Below the pieces are notes generated by a model. It made no database searches, was not told where the DNA came from, and saw nothing but the letters and a program-made list of their open reading frames with translations. Made by a program: the position numbers and the translations under genes. A stretch of DNA of 22,745 nucleotides from a virus (Duplodnaviria > Heunggongvirae > Uroviricota > Caudoviricetes): IMG/VR virus record IMGVR_UViG_2778261182_000009, positions 1-22,745 of that record; one strand, written 5' to 3'. Below are positions 196 through 19,337 of the stretch, in pieces (positions within the stretch are counted from its first letter, which is position 1; every line of letters begins with the position of its first letter).

Positions 196-369
196 TCGCC
201 CGTAAGAGCAGAATATTTTGCTGAAAAATGAAGGGTGCTCCAGCGTCCGGAAAGCATGAAATTCTGTGTTTGCGGTCATTCAATAAAATAAATTCTTTCT
301 TTCGCCGCGAATACTCAAATGTTGATCAGCGCCTGCTGCGGTGACGGGCTTCGATATCAGGAGACGATG

Positions 370-666
370 ATGGAAAAAACAGAAAACAAACCGATTGTAA
401 TTGGTGCTGATGCTGCTCCGTTTAAGTTTGAGTTGTCTCAACTGGTGGAGATGCGCATCAGTGATGAATGGGGTGAGGTTAAAGCCCGCGCGCAGTATGC
501 GGATGGCGAAAACCAGTACTTGATCCACTACAAAGCTGCTGATGGTCGTGCCACAACGGAGTGGTTTGGTGAGTCAATGCTGGAAGCAACAGAAGATGAT
601 CGTCATCCTGGTTGTCCGGTATTTGCAGGTATGAAATTACCGGAAGGCGCAGTCGTTACTGAGTAA
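370..666 (+). CDS. Hypothetical acidic protein (moron-like ORF between lysis cassette and cos)
   Basis: ORF 319..666 in the six-frame track; AGGAG at 359-363 favours the ATG at 367 or 370 (MMEKTENKP...). I recognise no homolog from sequence. It sits where lambda carries bor and other accessory genes. Confidence 0.45.
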   Translation: MEKTENKPIVIGADAAPFKFELSQLVEMRISDEWGEVKARAQYADGENQYLIHYKAADGRATTEWFGESMLEATEDDRHPGCPVFAGMKLPEGAVVTE

Positions 667-3409: not shown

Positions 3410-3619
3410 ATGATTTATACACATGAGATGCTTTGCGAAGCGCGTCGGGCGCTGCATGAACTGATGATCGGGCGTGCTGTGGCTTCAGTCAGTAAGAACG
3501 GACGGCAGGTACAGTATTCGCGGGCGACGATTAATGAATTACGGCGATATATTGAGGAAATTGAAAGTGCGCTTGGAATGTCAGGTCGTCGCCGTGGCCC
3601 TGCAGGAGTACGACTGTGA
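3410..3619 (+). CDS. W: Head-tail joining / head completion protein (lambda gpW family)
   Basis: About 69 aa; the translation ...EARRALHELMIGRAVASVSKNGRQVQYSRATINELRRYIEEIE...RRRGPAG matches lambda gpW (...[27 protein letters not shown]...RRRGPAG). GGAGGA lies 6 nt upstream of the ATG at 3410; a GTG at 3407 is an alternative start. Confidence 0.8.
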   Translation: MIYTHEMLCEARRALHELMIGRAVASVSKNGRQVQYSRATINELRRYIEEIESALGMSGRRRGPAGVRL

Positions 3620-5187
3620 GCGGGGAACTGGTGGATCTTCATGGGCAACCTCTGCGGCATAGCATGGGATATTCCGGGGGTGGTACCGGATTTGGCGGGC
3701 AGCTTGCGGAATGGCTGCCTGCACCGGAAAGTGCTGATGTGGCACTCTTACCTTCCATTCAGCTGGGTAACGCCCGTGCGGACGATTTGGTCCGTAACAA
3801 CGGTATTGCCGCAAATGCTGTGGAAATTCATAAAGACCATATTGTCGGGCACATGTTTCGCCTGAGTTACCGACCCAACTGGCGCTGGCTGGGGATGTCG
3901 GAAGCTGATTCGCATGCCTTTATTGAAGATGTTGAGGCGGCGTGGATGGAATATTGCGATCCGGTGTTTGGTTCGATGGATGTGGAAGGGCGTCGCTCGT
4001 TTACCGAATTTATTCGTGAAGGGGTGGGGGTCCATACTTTTAACGGTGAAATTTTTGTCCAGCCCGTATGGGATACGGAATCCACGTCATTATTCCGGAC
4101 AAAATTCAAGACCATCAGTCCGAAGCGCGTCAGCACGCCCGGTTATGGCATCGGCGATCGTTTTATGCGTGCCGGAGTGGAAATCAACCGTTACGGAAAG
4201 GCGATTGCTTATCATGTTCAGGACGATGACTGGCCTGGCTACGGTGTCAGTAACTGGACACGGATTGCGGCGACGCTGCCCTCCGGGCGACCGGGAATGA
4301 TCCATGTGTTTCAGCCGCAGGAGGACGGACAGACGCGCGGGGCCAACCAGTTTTATTCCGTGATGGAGCGCCTCAAGATGCTCGACACACTGCAGGCAAC
4401 ACAACTGCAGTCGGCGGTGGTGCGGGCGATGTATGCCGCGACGATTGAATCCACACTGGATTCGGAAAAAGCATTTGAATATATCGCCGGGGTGGGAGAT
4501 GGCGGTAAAAACCCCCTGAACACCATCATGAAAGGGTATGCGCGCTATTACGCCACCAATACGGTAAAGATGGGTGGGGTTCGTATTCCGCATCTTTATC
4601 CGGGGGATTCACTGAATCTGCAGACAGCACAGAATGCGGATAATGGTTTCTCTGAACTGGAAAAGGCGCTGTTACGTTACATTGCTGCCGGACTGGGCGT
4701 GTCCTATGAGCAGCTTTCCCGTGATTATTCACAGGTCAGTTATTCCAGTGCCAGGGCATCCGCCAATGAGTCGTGGCGGTATTTTATGGGGAAACGAAAA
4801 TTTGTGGCCAGCCGTCTGGCGTCACAGATGTTTGCCTGCTGGCTGGAGGAAGCCCTTATTCGCGGTGTGATCCGCCCACCGAAATCCCGTTTCTCATTCT
4901 GGGAGGCTCGTTCCGGGTGGTGTCGTGCCGAGTGGATTGGTGCCGGCCGCATGGCGATTGATGGCCTTAAGGAGGTGCAGGAGGCGGTGATGCGTATTGA
5001 AGGTGGCCTGAGCACGTACGAGAAGGAGCTGGCCCTGATGGGTGATGACTATCAGGAGATTTTCCGTCAGCAACTGCGTGAAAGCCAGGAGCGACAGGCC
5101 GCCGGTCTTCCCCGCCCCATCTGGATAAAGGATACGTTTCAGCAGCAGATCCGACAGACAACGGGAGAAAAAGGCGATGCGTCGTAA
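3616..5187 (+). CDS. B: Portal protein (lambda gpB family)
   Basis: 523 aa, GTG start overlapping the W stop. Strong alignment to lambda gpB: GGGTGFGGQL, GNARADDLVRNNG, HVFQPQEDGQTRGANQFYSVMERLKMLDTLQATQLQSAVV, SLNLQTAQNADNGFS, LLRYIAAGLGVSYEQLSRDYSQVSYSSARASANESW, WIGAGRMAIDGLKEVQEAVMRIEGGLSTYEKE. Confidence 0.92.
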   Translation: MSGELVDLHGQPLRHSMGYSGGGTGFGGQLAEWLPAPESADVALLPSIQLGNARADDLVRNNGIAANAVEIHKDHIVGHMFRLSYRPNWRWLGMSEADSHAFIEDVEAAWMEYCDPVFGSMDVEGRRSFTEFIREGVGVHTFNGEIFVQPVWDTESTSLFRTKFKTISPKRVSTPGYGIGDRFMRAGVEINRYGKAIAYHVQDDDWPGYGVSNWTRIAATLPSGRPGMIHVFQPQEDGQTRGANQFYSVMERLKMLDTLQATQLQSAVVRAMYAATIESTLDSEKAFEYIAGVGDGGKNPLNTIMKGYARYYATNTVKMGGVRIPHLYPGDSLNLQTAQNADNGFSELEKALLRYIAAGLGVSYEQLSRDYSQVSYSSARASANESWRYFMGKRKFVASRLASQMFACWLEEALIRGVIRPPKSRFSFWEARSGWCRAEWIGAGRMAIDGLKEVQEAVMRIEGGLSTYEKELALMGDDYQEIFRQQLRESQERQAAGLPRPIWIKDTFQQQIRQTTGEKGDAS

Positions 5188-6793
5188 TTTATCGCATATT
5201 GCCGCCATGGCATTTAATGAACCGCTTTTACTGGAGCCCGCCTATGCGCGGGTTTTCTTTTGCGCGCTGGGTAAAGAGATGGGGGCCGGCAGCCTTGCCG
5301 TTCCTCAGCAGGCTGTTCAGCTTGATGCTGATGGTATGCAACTGGCTGTGACTGACTATATGGCGGGCGGTCAGCGTCCGGCAAAGAGTTACCAGGTGAA
5401 GAATGGCATCGCCATTCTGCCGGTGAGCGGCACGCTGGTGCATAAACTGGGTACCCTGCGCCCTTACTCCGGCATGACAGGCTATGACGGCCTGACTGCC
5501 CGTCTTCAGATGGCGGTGAATGATCCGGATGTGCGCGGCATTTTGCTGGATATCGACAGCCCGGGCGGTCAGGCTGCCGGGGCGTTTGACTGTGCTGACA
5601 TGATTTACCGCCTGCGGGAACAGAAGCCCGTGTGGGCGCTGTGTAATGATATGGCCTGTTCAGCCGCCATGTTGCTGGCGGCAGCCTGTACGCGTCGGCT
5701 GGTCACGCAGACGGCAAAAATTGGTTCGATTGGTGTGATGATGGCGCACACCAGTTACGAGAAACAACTGGCACAGGAAGGGGTGGACATCACGCTGATT
5801 TACTCCGGGCAGCACAAGGTTGACGGCAACAGTATTCAGGCATTGCCGGCAGGTGTGCGTGCAGATTTTCAGCGCCGTATTGATGAGGCCCGCCGGATGT
5901 TTGTCGACAAGGTGGCGCTTTATACGGGGCTGAGTTCAGAGGCGGTGATGAATACCGAGGCTGCCGTTTATGACGGTCAGGCAGGCATTGATGCAGGCCT
6001 GGCTGATCAACTGATTAATGCTGCAGATGCCGTTGAAGTGATGGTTTCTGTACTGAATGACTCTGTTACGAAGGAGAATGCAATGACTGTTAAAAATCTC
6101 ACCGTTGCTGAAGCGGTGGCCCAGGAAAATCAGCGCGTGATGGGGATCCTGAATTGTCAGGAGGCGAAAGGGCGCGAGCAACTGGCGCAAATGCTGGCAG
6201 GTCAGCCTGGAATGACGGTTGAGCAGGCGAAAACGTTGCTTGCAGCTGCGCCGGTTGCCGGTACTGACAGCACGGGTGATCAGATTATGGCGCTGCCGGA
6301 AGCAAAGGGGCGTGAGCAACTGGCACAGATGCTGGCAGGTCAACCGGGGATGACGGTGGAGCAGGCGAAAGCGTTTCTGGCAGCAGCCCCTGCTGCCAGT
6401 GCTGCAGGCACAGGCGATCAGATTATGGCGTTGCCGGAAGCTAAAGGGCGTGAACAACTCGCGCAGGCGCTGGCTGAACAGCCGGGAATGACCGTTGACC
6501 AGGCAAAAACGTTACTGGCGGCGGCACCGGTTGCCGGTTCTGCAAGTGTCGGCGATCAGATTATGGCGCTGCCGGAGGCGAAAGGGCGCAAGCAACTTGC
6601 ACAGGCACTGGCAGAACAACCGGGAATGACGGTGACGCAGGCGAAAACGTTGCTGGCAGCTGCACCGGCGGCATCGCAACCGTCACAGGAAACACTTTTT
6701 GATCGCTTTATGGCACAGCATGCTGCCAGTGCGGTTTCCGGAGGCGGAACTGCCGGGCACGGAGAAGAAGATCTGCTGATGAGTATGCCGTAA
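5177..6793 (+). CDS. C: Head maturation protease / minor capsid protein C (lambda gpC, S49 peptidase family)
   Basis: The N-terminus MRRNLSHIAAMAFNEPLLLEPAYARVFFCAL matches lambda gpC (MTAELRNLPHIASMAFNEPLMLEPAYARVFFCAL). The protease core is conserved (PVSGTL, PYSGMTGY, PVWALCNDMACSAAMLLAAA, TGSIGVMMAH, LIYSGQHKVDGN, TEAAVYDGQ...IDAGLAD). The C-terminal part overlaps the Nu3 scaffold frame as in lambda. Confidence 0.88.
   Translation: MRRNLSHIAAMAFNEPLLLEPAYARVFFCALGKEMGAGSLAVPQQAVQLDADGMQLAVTDYMAGGQRPAKSYQVKNGIAILPVSGTLVHKLGTLRPYSGMTGYDGLTARLQMAVNDPDVRGILLDIDSPGGQAAGAFDCADMIYRLREQKPVWALCNDMACSAAMLLAAACTRRLVTQTAKIGSIGVMMAHTSYEKQLAQEGVDITLIYSGQHKVDGNSIQALPAGVRADFQRRIDEARRMFVDKVALYTGLSSEAVMNTEAAVYDGQAGIDAGLADQLINAADAVEVMVSVLNDSVTKENAMTVKNLTVAEAVAQENQRVMGILNCQEAKGREQLAQMLAGQPGMTVEQAKTLLAAAPVAGTDSTGDQIMALPEAKGREQLAQMLAGQPGMTVEQAKAFLAAAPAASAAGTGDQIMALPEAKGREQLAQALAEQPGMTVDQAKTLLAAAPVAGSASVGDQIMALPEAKGRKQLAQALAEQPGMTVTQAKTLLAAAPAASQPSQETLFDRFMAQHAASAVSGGGTAGHGEEDLLMSMP
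6083..6793 (+). CDS. nu3: Scaffolding protein (lambda Nu3-like), nested in-frame in the 3' part of gene C
   Basis: An in-frame ATG at 6083 is preceded by AAGGAG at 6071-6076. The downstream sequence (MTVKNLTVAEAVAQENQRVMGILNCQEAKGREQLAQMLAGQPGMTV...) resembles lambda Nu3 (…ITAAVAAENSRIMGILNCEEAHGREEQARVLAETPGMTV…). Separate expression is inferred from the lambda precedent. Confidence 0.55.
   Translation: MTVKNLTVAEAVAQENQRVMGILNCQEAKGREQLAQMLAGQPGMTVEQAKTLLAAAPVAGTDSTGDQIMALPEAKGREQLAQMLAGQPGMTVEQAKAFLAAAPAASAAGTGDQIMALPEAKGREQLAQALAEQPGMTVDQAKTLLAAAPVAGSASVGDQIMALPEAKGRKQLAQALAEQPGMTVTQAKTLLAAAPAASQPSQETLFDRFMAQHAASAVSGGGTAGHGEEDLLMSMP
6161..6670 (+). repeat. In-frame tandem repeat, about 4 copies of 138 bp (46 aa), inside the C/Nu3 scaffold coding region
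   Basis: Copies begin at about 6161, 6299, 6437 and 6575. Each encodes EAKGREQLAQ(M/A)LA(G/E)QPGMTV(E/D/T)QAK(T/A)(L/F)LAAAP...GDQIMALP; the last copy diverges after AAAPAAS. Seen directly in the nucleotide and protein sequence. Confidence 0.85.
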
Positions 6794-6830
6794 GCGTTAT
6801 CCGTGATTCAGATAAATCAGGAGACTGAAA

Positions 6831-7166
6831 ATGATTAAAACAACCACAGAAAAGCGCGCGGATGTGCATATTTTTGCCGGAAGCGATCCGGCGCATACCG
6901 CAACAGCCACCAGTGGTATCAGTGCTGCCACGCCTGCACTGACGCCACTGATGCTGGATGACGCCACCGGCAAACTGGTGGCATGGGATGGTCAGAAAGC
7001 CGGAACGGCAGTGGGCGTGCTGGCTCTGGCGCTTGCCGGAACAGAACCCATGCTGACGTACTACAAAAGCGGTACATTTGCCACTGAGTCGCTGGTCTGG
7101 CCTGATTCTGTGGATGCGGTGAAAAAAGCCAACGCATTTGTGGGAAGTGCCATCAGCTACGCCTGA
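6831..7166 (+). CDS. D: Head decoration protein (lambda gpD family)
   Basis: 111 aa; the translation (...[37 protein letters not shown]...[16 protein letters not shown]...) aligns with lambda gpD (...[37 protein letters not shown]...FYKSGTFRYEDVLWPE...). Good RBS CAGGAG upstream. Confidence 0.88.
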   Translation: [111 protein letters not shown]

Positions 7167-7235: not shown

Positions 7236-8264
7236 ATGGGGTTATTTACCACGCGTCAGTTACTCGGGTACACCGAGCAGAAAGTGAAATTTCGTGCGCT
7301 GTTTCTGGAGCTGTTCTTTCGTCGCACGATCACTTTCCATACTCAGGAAGTCATGCTGGATAAAATTACCGGCAAAACACCGGTTGCGGCGTATGTGTCT
7401 CCGGTGGTGTCAGGCAAAGTGCTGCGCAGCCGTGGTGGTGAAACCCGCGTGTTACGTCCCGGTTATGTAAAACCAAAACACCGCTTTGATTATCAGCAGG
7501 CAGTGGAACGTCTTCCGGGGGAAGATCCGGCCCGTCTTAATGACCCGGCCTACCGCCGCCTGCGTATTCTGACTGACAACCTGAAGCAGGAAGAGCAGGC
7601 GATTGTGCAGGTGGAAGAAATGCAGGCGGTCAGTGCCGTTCTGCAGGGGAAGTACACCATGAGCGGGGAACAGTTTGAGACGGTGGAAGTGGATTTTGGG
7701 CGCTCTGCCGCCAATAACATTACGCAGGCTGGCGGACGCGAATGGTCACAGCAGAATGCTGACACCTTTGATCCAACGCACGATCTGGATGCGTACTGCG
7801 ATTTTGCCTCCGGGACCATCAATATCGCGATTATGGATGGCACGGTCTGGCGTATGCTGAATGGCTTTAAGCTTTTCCGTGAAAAACTGGATACCCGTCG
7901 TGGTTCAAAATCGGAACTGGAAACCGCGCTGAAAGATCTGGGCTCCGTGGTCTCTTTTAAGGGGTATTACGGTGATCTGGCCATTGTTGTGGCGAAGACA
8001 ACGTATGTTGACGAAAACGGGGATGAACAGCGTTATCTGCCGGAAGGTACACTGATTCTGGGGAATACTCAGGCGGAAGGCGTCCGTTGTTATGGTGCCA
8101 TTCAGGATAATCAGGCGCTGAGTGAAGGGATCACCTCTGCAATTCGTTATCCAAAACACTGGCTGGAGGTGGGTGATCCTGGTTGCGAATATACCATGAC
8201 ACAGTCTGCGCCGTTGATGGTGTTGCCGGATCCTGACGCGTTTGTGGTGGTTCAGGTGAAATAA
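7236..8264 (+). CDS. E: Major capsid protein (lambda gpE family)
   Basis: 342 aa; extensive alignment to lambda gpE: YVSPVVSGKVLRSRGG, PGYVKPKH, RLPGEDPARLNDPAYRRLRI, EEMQAVSAVLQGKYTMSGE, KLDTRRGSKSELETALKDLG, LGNTQA, YTMTQSAPLMVLPDPDAFVVVQ. Confidence 0.93.
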   Translation: MGLFTTRQLLGYTEQKVKFRALFLELFFRRTITFHTQEVMLDKITGKTPVAAYVSPVVSGKVLRSRGGETRVLRPGYVKPKHRFDYQQAVERLPGEDPARLNDPAYRRLRILTDNLKQEEQAIVQVEEMQAVSAVLQGKYTMSGEQFETVEVDFGRSAANNITQAGGREWSQQNADTFDPTHDLDAYCDFASGTINIAIMDGTVWRMLNGFKLFREKLDTRRGSKSELETALKDLGSVVSFKGYYGDLAIVVAKTTYVDENGDEQRYLPEGTLILGNTQAEGVRCYGAIQDNQALSEGITSAIRYPKHWLEVGDPGCEYTMTQSAPLMVLPDPDAFVVVQVK

Positions 8265-9787: not shown

Positions 9788-10350
9788 TGGAACCATTGAT
9801 GATGGGAACCTGGCATCAGGCAGTGATTGACAGTCTGAAACAAATTCCCTGGGTGGAAGATGCCGATGAGTACCCGGAAAAAGTGACGCAACTGGTGACG
9901 CCTGCCGTGTTTGTGGATGTACCCGGCTGGGACAAGGCTCAGTTTGCCGACGGGCAGACACGGGTCACGCTGAAATGCGATCTGTTTGTGGTGACAGACC
10001 GGGCCGGGAAGACGGAAAACGTGCCAAAACCGCAGATATTTGCCCGCTGTCTGGCAATGGATTTATCTGACTGGATTGATGGAGCCACGTTCGGGCTGGA
10101 TAACGTTGACCCGGCGGTTTTTATCGATGCTGAGGTGGATACCTTCGACCGGCTGCTGGACGACTACATCGTTTTCCGTGTCTCTTTTGAACAGGACATT
10201 CCGGTCGGCGAAGATCCGTTTGCAGTTCCGGCAGGTGCGCCGTTACAGGAAGTCTGGCTGGGTAAAGTACCGGAAACCGGTAAAAAGCATGTGCAGGATT
10301 ATCGTCTTATCTGGAAAGCGGAGGGCACCGGCGATGAGTCTGGCGGATGA
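9784..10350 (+). CDS. Hypothetical acidic protein, possible tail completion or virion morphogenesis protein (occupies the P2 gpR/gpS position)
   Basis: 188 aa ORF with start overlapping the previous stop and end overlapping the gpV start. It lies immediately upstream of the V-W-J-I block, where P2 encodes the tail completion proteins R and S. No direct homology recognised. Confidence 0.45.
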   Translation: MMEPLMMGTWHQAVIDSLKQIPWVEDADEYPEKVTQLVTPAVFVDVPGWDKAQFADGQTRVTLKCDLFVVTDRAGKTENVPKPQIFARCLAMDLSDWIDGATFGLDNVDPAVFIDAEVDTFDRLLDDYIVFRVSFEQDIPVGEDPFAVPAGAPLQEVWLGKVPETGKKHVQDYRLIWKAEGTGDESGG

Positions 10351-10957
10351 AGTGGCAGAGTTACGCCGCAGGGTGGCGGACATGGTCCGTCGCGGCGTGG
10401 TGGAAGAGGTGATCCCGGGTAGCCCGGTGATGGTCCGGGTGGATATCGGAGATGTGCTTTCGCCGCCGTTGCCCTGGATTCAGGTGCAGTCCGGGCGTTA
10501 CATGCAGGTCAGTAATTACCCGGCACCAGGAGATGCGGTCACGGTGATATCGGAGGCAGGTGATCTGCGTAATGGTCGGGTGTATCCGGGGGCCAACATT
10601 GACGCGATTCCGGTACCGGCGGGCAGTGAACACGAGCATGTTATTTTGTTTGATACCGGAACGGAGATCCGTTACGACCGTCAGGCTAATGCCCTGTCCA
10701 TCACGCTGGCTGAAGGCGGTAGCTATAAAATCACCGGCAGGGGAACGCTGGACGGTCCGGTGGAAATCACGGATACCCTGACTGTGCAGGGAAAAACGAA
10801 GATTAATGCCGATACGCAGGTTCTTGGCAATATCGGTGCCTCACAGGAGATCACCGACAAAACCGGTAGCATGAGTAAAATTCGCGAAATTTATAATACT
10901 CATGATCACCCTGGCGACAGCGGGGGAACCACCCGTAAACCTAACCAGAAAATGTAA
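10334..10957 (+). CDS. V: Baseplate spike / assembly protein V (P2 gpV family)
   Basis: ORF 10040..10957; the homologous protein begins at the ATG at 10334 (MSLADEVAELRRRVADMVRRGVVEEV...), resembling the P2 gpV N-terminus. The C-terminal ...HDHPGDSGGTT... matches the P2 gpV ...HKHPGDSGGTT... motif. Confidence 0.82.
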   Translation: MSLADEVAELRRRVADMVRRGVVEEVIPGSPVMVRVDIGDVLSPPLPWIQVQSGRYMQVSNYPAPGDAVTVISEAGDLRNGRVYPGANIDAIPVPAGSEHEHVILFDTGTEIRYDRQANALSITLAEGGSYKITGRGTLDGPVEITDTLTVQGKTKINADTQVLGNIGASQEITDKTGSMSKIREIYNTHDHPGDSGGTTRKPNQKM

Positions 10958-10980
10958 ACGCCGCACCGGCGTTTTTTTTT
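10957..10980 (+). terminator. Putative intrinsic terminator / attenuator between V and W
   Basis: AACGCCG, loop CAC, CGGCGTT, followed by a run of nine T, immediately after the V stop codon. Confidence 0.5.
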
Positions 10981-10992
10981 CGGAAAAATTTC

Positions 10993-11349
10993 ATGATTGG
11001 TATTGATTCAGCCACCGGCAGATATCTGCACGGTAACGAACATTTGCGTCAGTCCGTCACCGATATTTTATCAACACCGGTCGGCAGCCGGGTACTTCTC
11101 AGGGAATACGGCAGCAGGTTGTTCAGTCTGCTTGATAACCCACAGGATGATTTCACGCGGGTGAGGATTGTCCGTGAAACGGCAACCGCCCTTGAGCGCT
11201 GGGAACCCCGCCTGACCCTTCGGCGGGTGGAGGTGACGTGGACCGGAGAAGGAAGCGCCTGGCTGACGCTTGTCGGGGTGAACAACGAGACACAGGAAAC
11301 GATTCGACTCGAGGAGATAAAAATTGGCAACGTCTCAGGCAATCATTGA
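10993..11349 (+). CDS. W: Baseplate assembly protein W (P2 gpW family)
   Basis: 118 aa; ...SVTDILSTPVGSRVLLREYGSRLFSLLDNPQDD...ALERWEPRLTL... aligns with P2 gpW (...SIGDILRTPVGSRVMRRDYGSLLASMIDQPQ...LKWEPRVTL...). Confidence 0.82.
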   Translation: MIGIDSATGRYLHGNEHLRQSVTDILSTPVGSRVLLREYGSRLFSLLDNPQDDFTRVRIVRETATALERWEPRLTLRRVEVTWTGEGSAWLTLVGVNNETQETIRLEEIKIGNVSGNH

Positions 11350-12238
11350 TCTGTCCGCGATACCGGTACCGGATGCGGTGGAGGTGCCGGACACCGCTGT
11401 GCTGGTCACTCAGATAGTGGCGAAATATCAGGAGCTGGATACGTTGTTTTCGGCCATGGTGGAATCCGATCCGGCGTATAAATGGGCAGAGGCACTGGCT
11501 TTTCGTGTGGCGCTGATGCGCCAGCAGGTCAATGATGCTGTCCGGGGTGTACTGCTTGCCAGTGCCCGCAGGAACGATCTGGATCAGATTGGTGCGAATT
11601 TTCAGGTGCAACGTCTGGTCATTACCCCGGCAGATGACAGCACCATTCCGCCCACGCCTGCGGTGTATGAAGATGATGATGCTTTTCGCGAACGTATCCA
11701 GTTGTCATGGGCACGACTCAGCACCGCAGGCGCGAAAAACGCATATCACTATTTTGCACAGAGTGCCGATCCTGATGTGCTGGATGTGAAAGCCTACGGG
11801 CCGGAAACGCATTCACAGGAAGGGCGTGTTTTTCTTTATGTGTTATCGCGAACCGGAAACGGTACGGCATCACAACCCCTGCTGGATAAGGTGGCAGCGT
11901 CAGTCAATGATGATGAAATTCGACCTCTGACGGATTTTGTCAGCGTCCGTGCGGCAGAAATTATTCCCTACGATGTGGTGGCGGATATCCATATTCCCTA
12001 CGGGCTTGATGGTGAACTGGTGATGAAAAATGCCCGTCAGGCGCTGCAGACCTACACTGACAGTGTTCACCGGATTGGTTCTGTGGCGTCCTGCTCCGGT
12101 ATGGACGGAGCCCTGCATCAGACGGGGGTGATCACGGTGGCACTGAAATCGCCGGTCAGTGATATTGTTCCGGTGATGGGACAGGCTCCATGGTGTCGCT
12201 CAGTCACACTGAACAAGGTGGAGACAACCGATGAATGA
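11324..12238 (+). CDS. J: Baseplate assembly protein J (P2 gpJ family)
   Basis: 304 aa; probable TTG start at 11324 with GAGGAG 7 nt upstream. Conserved blocks against P2 gpJ: IIDLSAIPVPD, NDLDQIGANF, RLVITPADDSTIPPTPAV, RERIQ, YHYFAQSADPDV, VRPLTDFVSV. Confidence 0.85.
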   Translation: MATSQAIIDLSAIPVPDAVEVPDTAVLVTQIVAKYQELDTLFSAMVESDPAYKWAEALAFRVALMRQQVNDAVRGVLLASARRNDLDQIGANFQVQRLVITPADDSTIPPTPAVYEDDDAFRERIQLSWARLSTAGAKNAYHYFAQSADPDVLDVKAYGPETHSQEGRVFLYVLSRTGNGTASQPLLDKVAASVNDDEIRPLTDFVSVRAAEIIPYDVVADIHIPYGLDGELVMKNARQALQTYTDSVHRIGSVASCSGMDGALHQTGVITVALKSPVSDIVPVMGQAPWCRSVTLNKVETTDE

Positions 12239-14816
12239 CAAAATCAGAAGCATACTTCCTGTCAGCGCCAGCCGGGCAGAGCGGGTGGTGGACAGTACCG
12301 CCGGTGATATGCTGGCGGAAATCGCGGTCTGTCTGATCCGCTATGTCAAAAATCCCGATTTATGTCCGACGGAATTGCTGCCATGGCTGGCCTGGGAAAT
12401 GTCAGTGGATACCTGGAATGAGCACTGGACGGAGGCGGAAAAAAAGGCGGCGATAAAACGTGCTGCCTATATCCATCGTCACAGGGGAACAAAAGCCGCA
12501 CTGAATGAATCCCTGGCAGACAGTCCGTTCCGGTCGCAGATTGTGGAGTGGTATGAGCAGACGCCACCGGGAGATCCCTATACCTTCCGGCTGAATGTGG
12601 AGCAGAAGGATCTGCCGGTTCTGATGAGCGACCACCAGGATTTGAAACATGCCGTACTACGGGCCAAAAATCTGCGCAGCTGGTTCAGTATTCACGTTTA
12701 TGGAAACTGCCGGGGGAACGGATATGGTTATGGCTATGTGACGGCGACGGAAAAACTGAAAAATAAAATCATGCCATCACAGATCCTGTTGTCGCCGGAC
12801 AGTGTGCAACTGGCTCCCGGAGAAACGGTATCCATAAAAGTGACGATATTGCCACTGATCGCTGAAGATCGCACCTTCACTGTTCACCTGGCAGATGAAC
12901 GTGTGGCTGATATACAGGTTGATGGTGATGTAATCACCCTGACCGGCAGACAGTTCGGGTCCACCACGGTGACTGTGATGACGGTTAATGGTGTGACCGC
13001 CACGTTACCCGTAAGCATTGTGTCAGTCACCCGCGTTTTGATCCGGGTGGACAGTGTCAGCAGGCCATTATTTATGGTGGATCCCAGAGAAACAGGATTC
13101 ACCATTGATTATGGTGACGGAACAGATTCCCGGGACTACACCATTTCAGGGAACGATGTTATGACTACCCGGACACTGGCACCGGGGACGGAACTGATGC
13201 TGACGGTGAAAAACTGTGAAAGCATTACGTTTTATAAAACATATACGTCATCAAACCCGTTGCTGGAGATCATTCAGGTCTGTAGTCTGCGCACAAGTAT
13301 GTATCAGTTTGCATACGGGCACCGTGCGCTGAGAAAAATTCATGACGGAGCATTTGATTACCTGGTAAATGTGAATGATTTTGGCAGGGCGTTTATGGGG
13401 TGTTCTGCTCTGGAAACAGTCCCTGAACATTTGTTTGCCGCCTGTCAGCGGGTGCTCTATTTTTCGTATCTTTTCTGTGACTGTTCATCGTTGTCTGCAA
13501 TCCCGGATGGCCTTTTTGCCGGTGCCGGAGAAGTGGTTGATTTTCGTTATGTATTCAGTGGTTGCAGGAAACTTGCCTCCCTGCCTGAAGGATTGTTCGC
13601 CGACGCGGTTAATGCCACTGATTTTTCGTATGCATTCAATAACTGCAGTATGCTGACAGCACTACCCCCGCGTTTGTTTGCGGGAGCCGTATCAGCAACA
13701 AATTTCCACTATGTTTTTAATGGTTGTCGGGCGCTGACTTCCCTGCCGGATGATTTATTCCACGGACTTCATCAGGCCAGTATTTTCTCCCGGGCTTTTG
13801 CACTGACAGGTCTGACGCACCTGCCGGATAACCTGTTTGCTGAAACCCGTGGAACAAATTTTGACAGCGTTTTTTACTCTGCGGAAAAACTGACACGGGT
13901 TCCCCGCACGTTGTTCCATCTGCCGCTTCATGACGGGAATGTCAGAATTATACTGGATGGTGCTTTTGAGTTTTGTAGTGGGTTACTTACAATTGAGCCG
14001 GGTGTGTTTGATGACATTACGACGAAGATACGTTCAGCAAAGCGTGTATTTCGTCGCTGTTATGCACTGAAAGCGATACCGTCCCGTCTGTTTGCTGGTG
14101 CGGTGAACTGTGAATCTTTTAACACATCATTTGAAAGTTGTCTGGCGCTGACCTCCACTGGTGATGAAGTTTTCTCGGGGAGCGGGATCCAGGATGCACA
14201 ATTAATTTTTGCTTATTGCAGTAACCTGACAACGACAGGGGAAAGGTTGTTTGCCGACTGTCGTTCCCTGACGTCATACAACAATTGTTTTTCATCCTGT
14301 TCGTCACTAAGTCAGATCGGTGCAGGTATGTTGTCCGGCTGCGTTTCCCTGAGAACGGCTTATCATCTGTTGACCGATTCCGTGGGGAGTAACCGGGTGA
14401 CAACCGTGCCAGGGGATTTGTTCCGGGGATGTGTTTCCCTGAACAACATCAGCAGTCTGTTTGATTCCTGTGGTCAGTTAACATCAATTCCGGATGAACT
14501 TTTTGCTGATTGTCAGACGATACAGCATGCGGGGGGCGCATTTTCCCGGTGCGTGCGGTTACAACGTGTCCCGGCGGATATTGTTACGCCATCGACGACT
14601 GCATCCAGCCTGGCTTCCATGTTCCGCAACTGTGAACAGCTTGAAATGGATATCAACGATATATTTACCCGGAATTTCCCGTCGGGCTGTAATCTGCTGA
14701 CTATTTTTACCGGCTGTAAAAATGTGACCGGCAGTAAATCTGAATTTCTTGCAAAATTTCCGTCGCCCTCTGATGCAGAGAATGCCTTTTACGGGTGCGA
14801 CCGGCTGACAGACTGA
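12231..14816 (+). CDS. I: Baseplate protein I homolog (P2 gpI-like N-terminal ~175 aa) fused to a ~680 aa extension: predicted Ig-like domain plus a Cys-rich LRR-like repeat array
   Basis: One uninterrupted 861 aa ORF. Residues about 40-175 align with P2 gpI (NPDLCPTELLPWLAWEMSVDTWNEHWTEAEKKAAIKRAAYIHRHRGTKAAL...PPGDPYTFRLNV vs P2 NPDTCPANLLPWLAWAFSVDRWDEKWPEATKRAVIRDAYFIHCHKGTIGAI...PPGTFRLDI). Downstream come an Ig-like segment (SPDSVQLAPGETVSIKVTILP...TTVTVMTVNGVTATLPVSIVS) and 15-20 repeats of about 24 aa of the form F..C..L..(I/L)P..LFA......F...F. P2 gpI is only about 176 aa. Confidence 0.8.
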   Translation: MNDKIRSILPVSASRAERVVDSTAGDMLAEIAVCLIRYVKNPDLCPTELLPWLAWEMSVDTWNEHWTEAEKKAAIKRAAYIHRHRGTKAALNESLADSPFRSQIVEWYEQTPPGDPYTFRLNVEQKDLPVLMSDHQDLKHAVLRAKNLRSWFSIHVYGNCRGNGYGYGYVTATEKLKNKIMPSQILLSPDSVQLAPGETVSIKVTILPLIAEDRTFTVHLADERVADIQVDGDVITLTGRQFGSTTVTVMTVNGVTATLPVSIVSVTRVLIRVDSVSRPLFMVDPRETGFTIDYGDGTDSRDYTISGNDVMTTRTLAPGTELMLTVKNCESITFYKTYTSSNPLLEIIQVCSLRTSMYQFAYGHRALRKIHDGAFDYLVNVNDFGRAFMGCSALETVPEHLFAACQRVLYFSYLFCDCSSLSAIPDGLFAGAGEVVDFRYVFSGCRKLASLPEGLFADAVNATDFSYAFNNCSMLTALPPRLFAGAVSATNFHYVFNGCRALTSLPDDLFHGLHQASIFSRAFALTGLTHLPDNLFAETRGTNFDSVFYSAEKLTRVPRTLFHLPLHDGNVRIILDGAFEFCSGLLTIEPGVFDDITTKIRSAKRVFRRCYALKAIPSRLFAGAVNCESFNTSFESCLALTSTGDEVFSGSGIQDAQLIFAYCSNLTTTGERLFADCRSLTSYNNCFSSCSSLSQIGAGMLSGCVSLRTAYHLLTDSVGSNRVTTVPGDLFRGCVSLNNISSLFDSCGQLTSIPDELFADCQTIQHAGGAFSRCVRLQRVPADIVTPSTTASSLASMFRNCEQLEMDINDIFTRNFPSGCNLLTIFTGCKNVTGSKSEFLAKFPSPSDAENAFYGCDRLTD

Positions 14817-14826
14817 GGTTTTACAG

Positions 14827-16251
14827 ATGCATGGATTAACACTGACGACAGCAGGCGCGGCAGAGATTGAGGCTGCCTACCAGTCAGGACAGGTGGTGAC
14901 CATCACGCACGTGCTCACCGGTGATGGTGGCGGTCAGAAACTGCCTGAAACACCGGATGAAATGGCTGCAATGACAGGGCTGTATGGTCAGTTTGGTCAG
15001 GAGCCACTTTCTGCCGGTGAATCCGGAGAAGGATTTATCCGTGGTGAAATTGTTATTGACTGCAAAAAATACCCCGGAAAAACGCTGCGTGAACTGGGGA
15101 TGGTGAGTGCCAGCGGCACGCTGATAGCGTACGGGCGTTATCCGGATACGTATTTACCGGCACAGACAGATTCCGTCATCAAAGAGGTTATTCTGACGCT
15201 GGTACTGGGGCTGACGCATGCGCAGAATGTGACGCTGGAGCTTGACCCGTCCAGGGTGATTATCACGCAGGAGGCAGGAGATAAACGCTATCTGCGCATC
15301 AGCGAGAATCTTGCCGATGTGGAAGATAAAGATGAAGCAGTTGATAACCTCGGGTTAAAACCGACGGTGGACAAGGCAAAAAATGCCGTTCAGCGCGATG
15401 GTGACACCATGACCGGGGAGCTGAAAATCAGGAGAGTGAATGCGCTGCGAATTTTCGACGAAGCTTTTGGCCTGATTTTTCGTCGTTCGGAAGAGTGCCT
15501 GCACCTTATCCCTACCAGTGAAGGTCAGGGTGAAAATGGCGATATTGGCCCCCTGCGTCCGTTCACTATTAATCTGCGGACCGGTGAGATATCCATGTCG
15601 CACAAAGTGTCTGTTGGTTTTGGCTCTCAGGTGCAGGGCGCACTGGGTATCGGTGTTCAGAATGCGCTGGGCGGTAACTCAATTGCTTTCGGGGATAACG
15701 ATACAGGTATAAAACAAAACGGCGACGGCATTCTGGATGTTTATGCGAATGGACAGCATGTATTTCGTTTCCAGAATGGTGTGGCGACAGCGTTAAAAAA
15801 TATTCAGGCCGGAAATGCTAAAAAATTCACGTTATCCAGCGCCAACAACTCAACGAAAAACGCAACGTTTAATTTATGGGGCAATTCGTCCCGTCCTGTA
15901 GTTGCAGAGCTTGGTGATGATTCCGGCTGGCATTTTTACAGCCAGAGAAATACGGATAACAGTATAACGTTCGCTGTAAACGGACAGATGGTCCCGTCAA
16001 ATTATGGAAATTTCGATGCCCGTTACCAGACCAAATCAGGGGGCGTGCAGAATTTTCAGTACACCAGTGAGGTGTTTTACAACCCTGGTGGGAATGAGCG
16101 CAGCTGGACGTTTCGGGCACCTTCTGGTTGTGTTTTGTCAGGCATTAATGTTCAGGACACTGGCAGTAACTCTGCAGATAATATCGGTGGCGTGTATTAC
16201 AAACAGGCTCAGATTTATATTGATGGCGCATGGCGCTCAGTATCAGGTTAA
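14827..16251 (+). CDS. H: Tail fiber protein (P2 gpH family)
   Basis: 474 aa; the N-terminus ...LTTAGAAEIEAAY...TGDGGG is fiber-like, and a long block NALGGNSIAFGDNDTGIKQNGDGILDVYANGQHVFRFQNGVATALKNIQAGNAKKFTLSSANNSTKNATFNLWGNSSRPVVAELGDDSGWHFYSQRNTDNSITFAVNGQMVPSNYGNFDARY matches the P2 gpH family. Followed by a fiber assembly gene. Confidence 0.85.
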   Translation: MHGLTLTTAGAAEIEAAYQSGQVVTITHVLTGDGGGQKLPETPDEMAAMTGLYGQFGQEPLSAGESGEGFIRGEIVIDCKKYPGKTLRELGMVSASGTLIAYGRYPDTYLPAQTDSVIKEVILTLVLGLTHAQNVTLELDPSRVIITQEAGDKRYLRISENLADVEDKDEAVDNLGLKPTVDKAKNAVQRDGDTMTGELKIRRVNALRIFDEAFGLIFRRSEECLHLIPTSEGQGENGDIGPLRPFTINLRTGEISMSHKVSVGFGSQVQGALGIGVQNALGGNSIAFGDNDTGIKQNGDGILDVYANGQHVFRFQNGVATALKNIQAGNAKKFTLSSANNSTKNATFNLWGNSSRPVVAELGDDSGWHFYSQRNTDNSITFAVNGQMVPSNYGNFDARYQTKSGGVQNFQYTSEVFYNPGGNERSWTFRAPSGCVLSGINVQDTGSNSADNIGGVYYKQAQIYIDGAWRSVSG

Positions 16252-16264
16252 TTAAGGAAAAATA

Positions 16265-16792
16265 ATGGAACTCGTAAACGTTACGCGTTACTACCCTGAA
16301 GACATGCCTTATGGTGAAGGCATTCAGTATTTCCGTAGTGAAGACGGGCAGGATTTTTATGAATCACTGGATAAATTCACGAAGAAATACAAGCTGTGCA
16401 CGCATCCTGAAACCGGCATTATTTATTCCATGGCGGAAGATGTATCCCGTCTTTATCCCGTTGGTTTTACCATTGTGGAAGTGGATGAACTACCGGAAGG
16501 ATTTTGTATTGAAGCCCGCTGGTATTATAAAGACGGTGAAGTACTGCCGGTCCCTGTAGACTACCGGCAGCAGGCAGAGTCGGAGCGTGCACGTCTTACT
16601 GCGATTGCCGAACGGGAAATATCCGATAAGAAGACGGATTTACTTCTGGGAATCATCAGTGATGAGGAAAAAGAAAAGCTGACAGCCTGGCGTGTTTACG
16701 CAAAGGAACTGCAGGTGATGGATTTCAGCGCCATTGTGGATAAGAGCGCTTATGACAATATTGCCTGGCCTGAATCACCACAAAATATCTGA
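16265..16792 (+). CDS. G: Tail fiber assembly protein (P2 gpG family)
   Basis: 175 aa, immediately downstream of the fiber gene, with a suitable RBS (AAGGAAAAATA-ATG). The ...RQQAESERARLTAIAEREI... segment resembles the conserved region of tail fiber assembly chaperones. Confidence 0.75.
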   Translation: MELVNVTRYYPEDMPYGEGIQYFRSEDGQDFYESLDKFTKKYKLCTHPETGIIYSMAEDVSRLYPVGFTIVEVDELPEGFCIEARWYYKDGEVLPVPVDYRQQAESERARLTAIAEREISDKKTDLLLGIISDEEKEKLTAWRVYAKELQVMDFSAIVDKSAYDNIAWPESPQNI

Positions 16793-16809
16793 AAAAAGTG
16801 AATCAACAG

Positions 16810-16833
16810 ACCGCCTTTAAGGGCGGTTTTTTT
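16810..16833 (+). terminator. Rho-independent terminator after the tail fiber assembly gene
   Basis: ACCGCC (16810-16815), loop TTTAAG, GGCGGT (16822-16827), followed by TTTTTTT; located between G and the sheath gene. Confidence 0.6.
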
Positions 16834-16846
16834 ATGGGAGAAATGT

Positions 16847-18322
16847 ATGTCCGGACTACATGGTGTTGAAACCATTGAACTGACAACAGGCACGGTCGCT
16901 GTGCAGACCATCTCCACGGCAGTGATTGGCCTGGTGGGGACTGCGCCGGATGCTTCCGGTGGTGTGTGTGCTTCCGGCACTGCCGGTTCGTGGCTGCTGG
17001 GAACGGCGCTGGATTTCACGGCGAAACAGGAAGGCCGGGCCGGCAATAAGATTTCTGTGGTTGCCGTCGCGGCCACAGAACAAAGCGCGCAGACCACGGC
17101 CTTACTGGAAGGTACAACCCTGACGATAAAGCTGGGGACGGATGAACACAGCCAGGTTAACGCCACGGTGGACCGTGTGACTGAAGTGGTGAATGCACTG
17201 GGTGATTCACCTGTGACGGCGGCGGTCAGTACCCTGAATGCAGGGGGAGCTGAAAATAATGTGGTGTCGCCGTTCAACCTGACGCTATCCGGCGGGGAAG
17301 ATGAGGCGTTCCCGGTTAATACACCGGTTGTGGTGGCAGGAGCCATTACTCAGGCAGGAAAACTGGGGGCTGCCGGGACACTGTATCCGGCCCTGCGAGA
17401 TATTTTTGACCAGACCGGTGCACTGGTGATTGTGGTGCGTGCGGAAAGTAAACCGAAAGCGAAAGAGGCTGAACAACGCGCGGCGGTGATTAAGGCCATG
17501 GAAGCGCTGACAGAGAGTAAAGGTGTGACGGGCTATCAGCCGCGCATTCTCATTGCCACGGGTTACAGTGAGGATGATGGTGTGGCAAAGGCGCTGGAAA
17601 CGTATGCCGCGAAGCTGCGGGCCGTGGCCTATATCGACTCTCCCTCAATGGCAACGCCGCAGGATGTGGTTCAGCGGCGCGCATCCTTTGGCGGACGTGT
17701 GGAACTGCTGCGCCCGCGCGTGTCAGTAACGGATGACAGCGGGCAGACGGTATTTCGTCCGTATTCGGCGCGCGCTGCCGGGCTGCGTGCCCGTATTGAT
17801 TACGAAAAAGGGTGGTGGTGGTCCAAATCAAACCAGGACGTGATGAATATCACCGGTCTGGAGCAGGTGGATACGTTTATTCTCGGGGAGCAGAACTGCA
17901 CGGCAAACCTGCTGAACATGGAAAATATCTCCACCATTATTCGTCACGACGGCTTTAAGCACTGGGGGAACCGTCTGTGTTCATCCCACAGTCAGTGGCG
18001 TTTTGAGCCGGTACGCCGCACTGCAGATGTGATTGAGGACAGCATCCAGGAGGCCATGCTGCCTTATGTCGATCGCCCGCTTGATAGGGATGTGGCGGAC
18101 GACATTCTTGGCAGTATTAATGCCTATATGCGTCAGCTTAAAAATCTGGGCGCGATCCACGGTGGCAGTGCCTGGCTGAATGATGAACTGAACACAGCAG
18201 AAACCCTGGCCGCCGGGCAGTTGTATATCGATTATGACTTTGGACCGAAGTCACCACTGGAGCGCCTGACACTGCGGGCGATGATTAACAATAAACTGGC
18301 GCTGGAGGAACTGACGGTATGA
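16847..18322 (+). CDS. FI: Contractile tail sheath protein (P2 gpFI family) with an N-proximal insertion
   Basis: 491 aa; the N-terminus MSGLHGVETIELTTGTVAVQTISTAVIGLVGTAPDA matches P2 FI ([37 protein letters not shown]). The C-terminal half is well conserved (GLRARIDYEKGW, IRHDGFKHWGNR, AETLAAGQLYIDYDFGPKSPLERLTLR). An extra segment of about 110 aa has no P2 counterpart. Confidence 0.9.
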   Translation: MSGLHGVETIELTTGTVAVQTISTAVIGLVGTAPDASGGVCASGTAGSWLLGTALDFTAKQEGRAGNKISVVAVAATEQSAQTTALLEGTTLTIKLGTDEHSQVNATVDRVTEVVNALGDSPVTAAVSTLNAGGAENNVVSPFNLTLSGGEDEAFPVNTPVVVAGAITQAGKLGAAGTLYPALRDIFDQTGALVIVVRAESKPKAKEAEQRAAVIKAMEALTESKGVTGYQPRILIATGYSEDDGVAKALETYAAKLRAVAYIDSPSMATPQDVVQRRASFGGRVELLRPRVSVTDDSGQTVFRPYSARAAGLRARIDYEKGWWWSKSNQDVMNITGLEQVDTFILGEQNCTANLLNMENISTIIRHDGFKHWGNRLCSSHSQWRFEPVRRTADVIEDSIQEAMLPYVDRPLDRDVADDILGSINAYMRQLKNLGAIHGGSAWLNDELNTAETLAAGQLYIDYDFGPKSPLERLTLRAMINNKLALEELTV

Positions 18323-18837
18323 TTACGGGTGAAAAAAAACTGTTGCGCGCATGGGCGTTATTTCTTCCTGGTGGGATCCGTCTTCAGGGGGCACATGAAT
18401 ACACGCCGCCTGCCATTAATATCACGACAGTGGATATCAAAACCGGCGCAATGGATGCACCGGTGGCAGTGGATGATGGTATGGAGGCGCTGACCTGCTC
18501 GTTTAAGATTTATGGCTACGATGTTGCCATGCTGACACTGCTTGGATTACAGGCGGGGCTTTATTCGCCGGAGATTGTTGTCCGCCAGGCTTACAGGGTG
18601 GGGAATGCGACCAGCGGACAGGTGGAAACCCTGCAGGGGATGATCTCCAGTATCACGCCGGATGCGCGCCCGGCAACGTCACAGGCGGAGGCTTCGGTGA
18701 CGGTGGAGATGTCGCTGAGTTATTACCGTCAGGCTGTAGATGGTCTGGAAACCATCTGCATTATTCCGGAGGAATTTGTTCGTCGTATTAACGGCGTTAA
18801 TGTTCTGTCGGATCTGAAAAAAATCATCCGGGTTTAA
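18319..18837 (+). CDS. FII: Tail tube protein (P2 gpFII position and size)
   Basis: 172 aa ORF directly downstream of and overlapping the sheath stop (GTATGA), with GGAGGA upstream. Assigned by synteny and the FII-like size; direct sequence similarity is weak by eye. Confidence 0.65.
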   Translation: MITGEKKLLRAWALFLPGGIRLQGAHEYTPPAINITTVDIKTGAMDAPVAVDDGMEALTCSFKIYGYDVAMLTLLGLQAGLYSPEIVVRQAYRVGNATSGQVETLQGMISSITPDARPATSQAEASVTVEMSLSYYRQAVDGLETICIIPEEFVRRINGVNVLSDLKKIIRV

Positions 18838-18856
18838 TCCGGGTATCCGGTTATTC

Positions 18857-18884
18857 AGGCGGCTCAGGCCGCCTTTTCTTTTTT
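18857..18884 (+). terminator. Rho-independent terminator after the tail tube gene
   Basis: AGGCGGC (18857-18863), loop TCAG, GCCGCCT (18868-18874), followed by TTTCTTTTTT. Confidence 0.65.
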
Positions 18885-18897
18885 AAAGGAGATGCTT

Positions 18898-19200
18898 ATG
18901 TCGGAAAAAAACAGTGTTCCTGCCAGCAGCGTGGAAATTGTGTTATCCGTGCCGTATGTCACCGCATCAGGGCAGACGATCACGCACATCACCATGCGTG
19001 CACCCACCGTCCGCGATCGTCTGTTGCATCGACGGAGTACCAAACCGGAAGCAGAGGCTGACCTGGATATGATTGCCGGTCTTTGCGGGATGGATGCGGC
19101 GGACATGATGAACATGGAAGCGTGTGATTACCTGGCCCTGGAGCGGCAGTTTAATGTTTTTTTGCTGCCGCCGGTCCGGCGGAAGAAGACAGCATCCTGA
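18898..19200 (+). CDS. E: Tail assembly chaperone (P2 gpE-like)
   Basis: ORF 18892..19200; AGGAG at 18887-18891 favours the ATG at 18898. Small protein between the tube and tape-measure genes; its 3' end contains a T7G slippery run. Confidence 0.7.
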   Translation: MSEKNSVPASSVEIVLSVPYVTASGQTITHITMRAPTVRDRLLHRRSTKPEAEADLDMIAGLCGMDAADMMNMEACDYLALERQFNVFLLPPVRRKKTAS

Positions 19201-19337
19201 CAGCGATACGGCGTGCTGGTGCCTGGTTCGGGTGGTCTCCCGGAGATGTGATGGCGCTGCCGTATACGGATTTTGTGTCAATGATGCTGGCAGAGTCGGA
19301 AGAGAGGAAACGACGTTATGGCAACGGTTGGCGATAA
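18898..19337 (+). CDS. Tail assembly chaperone frameshift product (P2 E+E'-like), made by a programmed -1 ribosomal frameshift
   Basis: The zero frame reads ...NVFLLPPVRRKKTAS and stops at 19198-19200. The -1 frame opens right at the slippery site (a stop at 19152-19154 sits just upstream in that frame) and runs stop-free from 19158 to a TAA at 19335-19337 (FFAAAGPAEEDSILTAIRRAGAWFGWSPGDVMALPYTDFVSMMLAESEERKRRYGNGWR), overlapping the tape-measure start as in P2. Confidence 0.55.
19157..19164 (+). other. Slippery sequence TTTTTTTG for the -1 programmed frameshift (E to E')
   Basis: T-run at 19157-19163 followed by G; the zero-frame codons are GTT TTT TTG. This is the same heptamer class used for the chaperone frameshift in P2-like tail operons. 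Confidence 0.55.

Follow-up and report, generated by a model that had tools for sequence, protein, structure and literature searches.

A four-unit array of Nu3-core modules in the nested protease/scaffold gene of a prophage with a lambda/21-type head, and its copy-number variation among relatives

The array and the gene that carries it

Here we have analysed a 22,745-nucleotide stretch of Caudoviricetes DNA (IMG/VR record IMGVR_UViG_2778261182_000009, positions 1 to 22,745; hereafter the window), in which a gene for a lambda gpC-like prohead protease/scaffold fusion carries a tandem array of four copies of the module that forms the core of the lambda scaffolding protein Nu3. The array lies within the C-terminal region common to the gpC-like protease and the scaffold nested in its gene, and it is in frame for both. 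Repetition of the Nu3 core within a lambdoid scaffold gene is already known from phage 21, of which the window presents the four-unit case; our additions are a population series of copy numbers, a pattern of anchored ends with a variable interior, and evidence for selection on each copy.

The four tandem in-frame 138-bp repeats of the original prediction were recovered by three routes. Tandem Repeats Finder reports an array at 6160-6668 (period 138, 3.7 copies, 79% matches, score 585), an ungapped repeat search returns three 237-nt copies at exact 138-nt spacing and 80% identity, and translation of the open reading frame (ORF) 5177-6793 places four 46-aa (138-bp) units head to tail over 6146-6697. 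The extent predicted earlier, 6161-6670, corresponds to the DNA-detectable part of the array; in protein phase, unit 1 begins 15 nt before that start (ILNCQ), and the diverged linker of unit 4 reaches 6697. Each unit consists of a 36-aa core with the consensus IMALPEAKGREQLAQMLAGQPGMTVEQAKTLLAAAP and a linker of ~10 aa rich in Gly/Ser/Thr/Ala. Unit-against-unit identity is 65-78% in protein over 46 aa and 64-78% in DNA, and 26 of 37 core columns are invariant among the four units. The earlier description of the copies as only slightly diverged is accurate for the protein; it fails for the DNA, where 37-64% of core synonymous sites differ. The units and the tail that follows them are given below, with the scores of one hidden Markov model (HMM) built on units from both the window and phage 21.

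6146..6283 (+): unit 1, ILNCQEAKGREQLAQMLAGQPGMTVEQAKTLLAAAP with linker VAGTDSTGDQ; HMM score 80.1
6284..6421 (+): unit 2, internal, IMALPEAKGREQLAQMLAGQPGMTVEQAKAFLAAAP with linker AASAAGTGDQ; HMM score 78.4
6422..6559 (+): unit 3, internal, IMALPEAKGREQLAQALAEQPGMTVDQAKTLLAAAP with linker VAGSASVGDQ; HMM score 76.1
6560..6697 (+): unit 4, last, IMALPEAKGRKQLAQALAEQPGMTVTQAKTLLAAAP (core 6560-6667) with diverged linker AASQPSQETL; HMM score 73.1
6698..6790 (+): conserved C-terminal tail, FDRFMAQHAASAVSGGGTAGHGEEDLLMSMP, kept in phage 21 and lambda

The gene itself and its internal start comprise the following features.

5177..6793 (+): gpC-like prohead protease/scaffold fusion gene, 538 aa, an S49 domain followed by a Nu3-like C-terminal region
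5660..5662 (+): codon of Ser162, aligned with lambda gpC Ser166 (CNDMACSAAM against ANDMNCSAGQ, BLASTP)
6071..6076 (+): Shine-Dalgarno sequence AAGGAG, 6 nt before the internal ATG at 6083
6083..6793 (+): predicted gene of the nested Nu3-like scaffolding protein, 236 aa, in frame with 5177 (906 nt = 302 codons)
6083..6145 (+): N-terminal helix of the scaffold, leading to unit 1, MTVKNLTVAEAVAQENQRVMG, homologous to lambda AQITAAVAAENSRIMG

The 538-aa protein matches Pfam PF01343 (Peptidase_S49) at residues 146-289 with an E value of 1.9e-33 and the head maturation protease family phrog_53 with an E value of 1e-220, and its protease domain is 62% identical to that of lambda gpC (BLASTP). Ser162 stands opposite lambda Ser166, reportedly the catalytic residue of gpC (Medina et al., 2010). 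The array region is matched in four stretches by the head scaffolding protein phrog_8399, and PHROG scaffold and capsid-assembly families match the C-terminal region. An S49 domain with the conserved serine, a place in the head module and a Nu3-homologous C-terminus are among the marks of a lambda-type gpC/Nu3 gene, and these three were found here.

AAGGAG together with the in-frame ATG at 6083 defines the predicted start of the nested scaffold. AGGAG or GGAGG followed by ATG occurs at the equivalent site in the close and phage-21-like relatives examined, amid surrounding divergence; both phage 21 records (M81255.1 and OL657228.1) annotate a ribosome-binding site and the gp6 start there, and gene callers begin independent proteins at the nested start in the relatives P0011, P0013, P0016 and P0020. 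The expected lengthening of both products relative to lambda is indeed seen, with 538 aa in the gpC-like protein against 439 aa in lambda and a nested scaffold that is longer too.

Age, selection and copy number

The four unit cores differ from one another mostly at silent positions (Nei-Gojobori): the proportion of synonymous differences (pS) is 0.37-0.64, that of non-synonymous differences (pN) 0.04-0.17, and omega 0.04-0.31. For the internal units 2 and 3, pS reaches 0.61, 8% of non-synonymous sites differ and omega is 0.07, and the orthologous first and last units compared with those of diverged alleles give pN/pS of ~0.03-0.37, mostly <0.2, like the protease domain. On these comparisons every copy is under purifying selection, and the copies in this allele are ancient. 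High synonymous with low non-synonymous divergence points to the peptide as the conserved entity, and argues against a function at the DNA or RNA level as well as against neutral decay of the extra copies; because synonymous divergence is high, homogenisation by gene conversion does not account for the low non-synonymous divergence in this allele.

No exact DNA match between any two units is longer than 18 nt, and this, with the old divergence, rules out both an assembly artefact and a recent product of slippage. Two suggestions of the original prediction lose ground accordingly. Recombination-prone is a poor description of this particular allele, whose short exact identities make it a poor substrate for homologous recombination, and the allele is not a product of recent slippage; tolerated expansion is unlikely to be the whole story with every copy under purifying selection.

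Where a linker meets the opening of the following unit (6254-6300, 6392-6438, 6530-6576), the linker codons of units 1-3 have pS of 0.25-0.43, below the 0.61-0.64 of the module cores. This low linker divergence could reflect a preferred recombination register or more recent local conversion. The stretch ATTATGGCG.TGCCGGA that opens units 2-4 looks near-identical by eye in the raw sequence.

The four-unit form is the common allele in this lineage. A survey of 5,426 complete E. coli genomes with a 1,001-nt query gave matches in 106, of which 99 cover at least 80% of the query, and the four-unit length (992-1,004 nt, 87-98.5% identity) was found in all 40 of the best rows and in 55 of 60 evenly spaced rows. 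The 538-aa protein also heads database clusters of 826, 470 and 153 members, sourced from E. coli, E. marmotae, E. albertii, Citrobacter and Salmonella.

For a view of copy number, 121 loci were fetched by the protease domain alone, so that sampling was independent of the repeat, and modules were counted with the HMM introduced above.

Close relatives (protease 91-100% identical): 4 units in 42 of 49 loci
Close relatives: 3 units in L059, L062 and L083
Close relatives: 2 units in L084, L085 and L089
Close relatives: 5 units in L086
Phage-21-like loci (protease 72-83% identical): 3 units in all
Distant relatives: 0-1 detectable modules

Copy number does vary between strains, as had been anticipated, with 2-5 units in the lineage and both 3 and 5 in complete genomes. 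The proteins of close relatives are 446, 492, 538 or 584 aa long, which are exact 46-aa steps. In the complete genome of E. coli STEC005, the protein is 584 aa long and has five units, none of them identical to another (87-96% DNA identity), and the five-unit query found the same full-length match in eight further STEC genomes; PapRG-04-4, also a complete genome, has a 492-aa protein with three units. Database variants P0237 and P0250 have 5 units at 43-aa spacing. Among proteins of the phage-21 type, P0346 has 4 units and P0280 (E. coli, 657 aa) has 5 full units and a truncated sixth, which arose via duplication of a 156-aa block. With 2-5 units in relatives of this lineage and 3, 4 or ~6 in the phage-21 type, copy number is best regarded as a variable rather than as a defining constant. 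In P0280 the duplicated block takes in two and a half modules along with the last part of the protease region; it also brings a second nested scaffold start, GGTMPQLTATEAAAQENQRVMG, and so potentially gives two nested scaffold products.

The composition of these arrays follows a pattern. In the relatives, every array ends in a unit-4-like unit and opens with a unit-1-like one, apart from L059, whose first unit is chimeric, and the interior reads [2,3], [3], [3,3], [2,2], [1',1',3], [3,3,3] or is empty. Unit 2 is absent or replaced in several alleles (e.g., L062 and the L071 group), and unit 3 is duplicated or triplicated in others; L062 has lost exactly unit 2, and L059 carries a chimeric unit 1/2 junction. 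As many as 44 distinct array sequences occur in 51 loci. These comparisons show that the array expands and contracts by whole units, its ends anchored and its interior duplicated, lost or homogenised; the anchored ends, variable interior and chimeric junction suggest unequal recombination among units. Throughout the 2-, 3-, 4- and 5-unit alleles, the major capsid protein is 95.6-99.7% identical to that of the window. We considered a coupling of copy number to capsid protein type and rejected it within this lineage, given a capsid that is near-constant over 2-5 units.

A set of IMG/VR drafts (L080-L086 and L090, ~3470-4250 per locus) forms a 2-, 3-, 4- and 5-unit series in which the internal units are 100% identical in DNA. 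Either unequal crossing-over took place very recently, or these copy numbers are beyond the resolution of short reads; the complete genome L125 confirms a related allele of three units. Separately, a 610-aa E. coli protein (P0277) named 'phage baseplate assembly protein V' is 99% identical to the gpC-like protein over 82% of the query and is probably a fused or misnamed gene call.

The module, its comparators and its neighbours

Beyond the lineage, we searched 1.84 billion representative proteins with a profile of the four units (E <=0.001) and found the module in 307. HMM re-scoring of 148 sequences from the best 150 of these found 131 with one module, 13 with two, 4 with three and none with four or more. 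Carriers thus have one copy as a rule, and an array of at least three is essentially confined to enterobacterial lambdoids. In S49 proteases of 400-550 aa, the module sits close to the C-terminus, a median of 49 residues short of it; it also occurs in stand-alone proteins of 100-230 aa, among them Bradyrhizobium hypothetical proteins. Its signature is I[LM]x[LC]xEAxGRExxAxxLAxxPGM[TS]VExAKxxLxAAP, and in proteins from clusters at 50% identity conservation reaches 85% or more at I1, E6, A7, G9, R10, E11, A14, L17, A18, M23, A28, L32 and P36. Though clearly delimited and common among S49 prohead proteases and small stand-alone scaffold proteins, the module falls under no Pfam or NCBIfam model, the sub-threshold matches (the HU N-terminus, DUF732 and others) being low-complexity or helical noise, and a sequence search of the PDB with the Nu3-like protein gave chance matches only (bL12, ATP synthase delta).

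An AlphaFold2 model of the 236-aa scaffold, made from a 17-sequence alignment, has a mean predicted local distance difference test score (pLDDT) of 65 and a predicted template modelling score (pTM) of 0.26. It places an N-terminal helix at scaffold residues 8-23 (pLDDT ~77-79 over residues 11-50) and resolves units 1, 3 and 4 into three short helices apiece (e.g., residues 110-115, 124-131 and 138-147) at pLDDT 74-81; unit 2 is less confident, with two helices at pLDDT 51-57, and the linkers fall below 50. The model therefore predicts a small three-helix domain of ~36 aa on flexible linkers of ~10 aa, and the low linker pLDDT and pTM suggest an arrangement like beads on a string.

Phage 21, the closest characterised phage (~74% identity in DNA, 74% in the protease-domain protein), is a better comparator for the array than lambda. 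Its gp5/gp6 carry three diverged copies, labelled 'Tri1 box', 'Tri box' and 'Tri3 box' in GenBank M81255.1 with the remark 'function unknown; putative', and the one HMM scores all units of both phages at 46-80 bits. Genes 5/6 of phage 21 share with the window their gene position, the nesting of scaffold in protease, a tandem in-frame module, and the internal ribosome-binding site and start site; they differ in having three copies spaced by 50, 47 and ~47 aa, with boxes that are more diverged, whereas the window has four at an exact 46-aa period. The window thus shows the tandem in-frame repeats of a ~36-aa Nu3 core within the gene 5/6 overlap that characterise the Tri boxes, in four units and not as a triplication.

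Lambda Nu3 (NC_001416) was predicted to hold a single motif, and it does: its one module, ILNCEEAHGREEQARVLAETPGMTVKTARRILAAAP, can be aligned to the beginning of unit 1 and to the final part of unit 4, with a homologous tail behind it. The order B-C/Nu3-D-E is common to lambda and the window, as are the homologous module and tail, and the major capsid protein (gpE) is 59% identical, alongside the protease identity given above. Unlike the window, lambda has its single module after a long, non-homologous Ser/Thr/Ala-rich segment, and its Nu3 start lies further upstream, inside the C-terminal region of the protease.

More distant systems offer parallels of design. The coat-binding helix-turn-helix of P22 gp8, 80alpha and phi29 scaffolds resembles the module, by inference only, in being small, helical and part of a transient internal scaffold, and in that it would contact an HK97-fold capsid protein; it is single-copy and at the extreme C-terminus, whereas the module of the window occurs in several copies with a 31-aa tail behind them, and we detected no sequence or fold match between the module and these three coat-binding domains. 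In nested genes of the herpesvirus UL26/UL26.5 type, which are in frame, the protease shares a C-terminal scaffold domain with the abundant scaffold and is thereby co-assembled into the procapsid. The likeness to the window, in this nested protease-scaffold logic, is one of analogy only, since the protease folds are unrelated (assemblin against S49) and the herpesvirus proteins have no repeated module. Tandem three-helix modules of Gram-positive proteins (protein A, GA modules, Ebh/Embp) likewise vary in copy number and are a structural analogy only, scoring as any three-helix bundle would and having no sequence relationship to the module.

The gene order around the array is that of a head module: terminase small and large subunits, portal (3616-5187), the gpC-like gene, decoration protein (6831-7166), major capsid protein (7236-8264), FI, and a head-closure gene at the FII position. 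This lambda/21-type head module is adjoined by a P2-like contractile tail module at 10040-20970 (PHROG matches), in which the order of PHROG families is that of P2, namely baseplate assembly, baseplate wedge, baseplate, tail fibre, fibre assembly and sheath (16847-18322). The ORF in the tube position (18319-18837) has 'head closure' as its best PHROG match, and the tape measure follows at 19318-20970. With a lambda-like head and a P2-like tail, the prophage is evidently a hybrid with a myovirus tail and not a lambda-like siphovirus. Upstream of the terminase small subunit, an ORF at 319-666 (+) matches phrog_1935, of unknown function, and an antisense ORF of 198 codons within the fibre-assembly/sheath region, at 16750-17346 (-), for which PHROG gave no match, is probably spurious.

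Proposed role and competing explanations

The reading that we favour, and consider fairly probable, is that of a multivalent scaffold and protease-delivery array, built from protein-level modules, whose copy number tunes contacts and which evolves by gain and loss of whole units. All modules would offer one and the same surface for binding the major capsid protein and/or other scaffold or portal subunits, so that the array would make the scaffold, and the protease riding in on the same domain, multivalent. Copy number would then tune the avidity, reach and stoichiometry of scaffold-shell contacts, not capsid geometry, while internal units would be duplicated and lost by unequal recombination and the retained copies kept by purifying selection. 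Yeast two-hybrid and genetic data have shown that lambda Nu3 interacts with E, B, C and itself (PMC3224144). In the present lineage, 2-5 units work with essentially the same capsid protein, and four is the modal number. Literature searches (Nu3, gpC, repeats, Tri boxes) brought up no paper on the repeat, its copy-number variation or selection on it; the 1993 phage 21 paper from which the GenBank annotation stems did not surface in them.

Several points weigh against this proposal. The binding partner of the module has been assigned by no experiment or structure. Lambda forms its T=7 head with a single module, and the 2-5-module alleles share the same capsid protein; it follows that the extra copies are not essential in kind. 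By analogy with herpesvirus and P22 scaffolds, capsid binding could instead fall to the conserved C-terminal tail, with the modules acting as spacers or self-association elements. Purifying selection indicates that each copy matters, not for what, and those draft copy numbers in which the internal units are identical in DNA (L080-L086) could be wrong.

The best-surviving alternative is that of a tolerated expansion, in which just one module, or just the first and last, is functional and the internal units are neutral passengers whose in-frame gain and loss does no harm. Copy numbers from 1 to ~6 among relatives, 2-5 of them with a nearly identical capsid, would be expected under such an expansion, as would the single working module of lambda and the confinement of turnover to internal units. 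We nevertheless think it unlikely. Units 2 and 3, near synonymous saturation, have kept an omega of 0.07, where neutral passengers would have gathered replacements and in-frame indels; gene-conversion homogenisation offers no way out, since synonymous divergence is high; and four units predominate, both in the 42 of 49 close loci and in the large database clusters.

A second alternative, which we find rather more doubtful, takes the array to be a spacer or ruler, in which semi-rigid beads set the distance from the N-terminal part (protease domain and N-terminal helix, possibly with a portal or self-association role) to a shell-contacting tail, and the function would be one of length, not valency. 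The fixed architecture of an N-terminal helix, n modules and a conserved tail of median 49 residues speaks for it, as does the fact that lambda, phage 21 and this prophage all conserve that tail; moreover, the scaffolds of herpesviruses and P22 bind the capsid through their extreme C-terminus. A spacer, however, would have no need of the strongly conserved polar signature E6, G9, R10 and E11, and array length varies within one capsid type.

A bolder version of the multivalency proposal, to which we give a small chance, would make the array a naturally tunable valency device, with n identical capsid/scaffold-binding modules, strung on flexible linkers in the scaffold and protease chains, driving a multivalent, possibly condensate-like co-assembly of the procapsid core and with copy number (1 to ~6) under fluctuating selection. 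If this were true, selection might act, for example, on the kinetics or fidelity of assembly, or on resistance to capsid-hijacking satellites or to competing prophages with shared head genes, and the 2-5-unit alleles of E. coli prophages would be a ready-made system for the study of scaffold valency in HK97-fold assembly.

The original prediction also drew attention to a long ORF on the opposite strand, which it took to be spurious.

5936..6457 (-): antisense ORF, 173 aa, TTG start, codon boundaries coincident with those of the gene

We agree. The ORF is not conserved, in that among close relatives the longest antisense run free of stops in this frame is anywhere between 93 and 276 codons; NCBIfam gave no match to it, and 5800-7000 showed no promoter-like site. 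The ORF arises from the composition of the repeated Ala/Leu/Gln-rich coding sequence. A role of the repeat at the DNA or RNA level (protein-binding sites, structured RNA) or in the service of this ORF is accordingly highly improbable. In its favour are the sheer length of the ORF, at 173 codons, and two matches to the CII-binding motif pattern annotated inside the homologous gene of phage 21 (OL657228.1). The divergence between units is, however, concentrated at synonymous positions, which marks the peptide as the conserved entity, and the sole TTGYN6TTGY match in the window, at 19073-19086, falls outside the array. We therefore rejected DNA-level function, given a CII-type motif only outside the array and the lack of promoter-like sites, and an antisense gene, given its non-conserved, unmatched reading frame.

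Finally, the explanation that the array was over-expanded or mis-assembled, with a lower true copy number, has nothing in its favour for this allele (only drafts with 100% identical internal units, L083-L086, could be mis-assembled) and can be dismissed as next to impossible, since units that are 64-78% identical and share at most 18 nt exactly leave nothing to collapse or inflate, the four-unit length recurs across complete E. coli genomes, and 44 distinct array sequences are found among 51 loci.

Overall, the interpretation given in the original prediction was largely right. The practical consequences begin with annotation: a variable-number locus of this kind can confuse prophage typing, and short-read assembly where units are identical, and the array also yields spurious antisense ORFs. 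For the biology of the family, the contacts of lambda Nu3 and gpC with the shell are still poorly defined, and the conserved module at the core of the domain stands without a Pfam or NCBIfam model, a solved structure or an assigned partner. Our findings will not surprise a specialist in phage assembly, yet natural alleles with 1 to ~6 copies that serve nearly the same capsid are a convenient allelic series, and provide a handle on scaffold valency and protease delivery.

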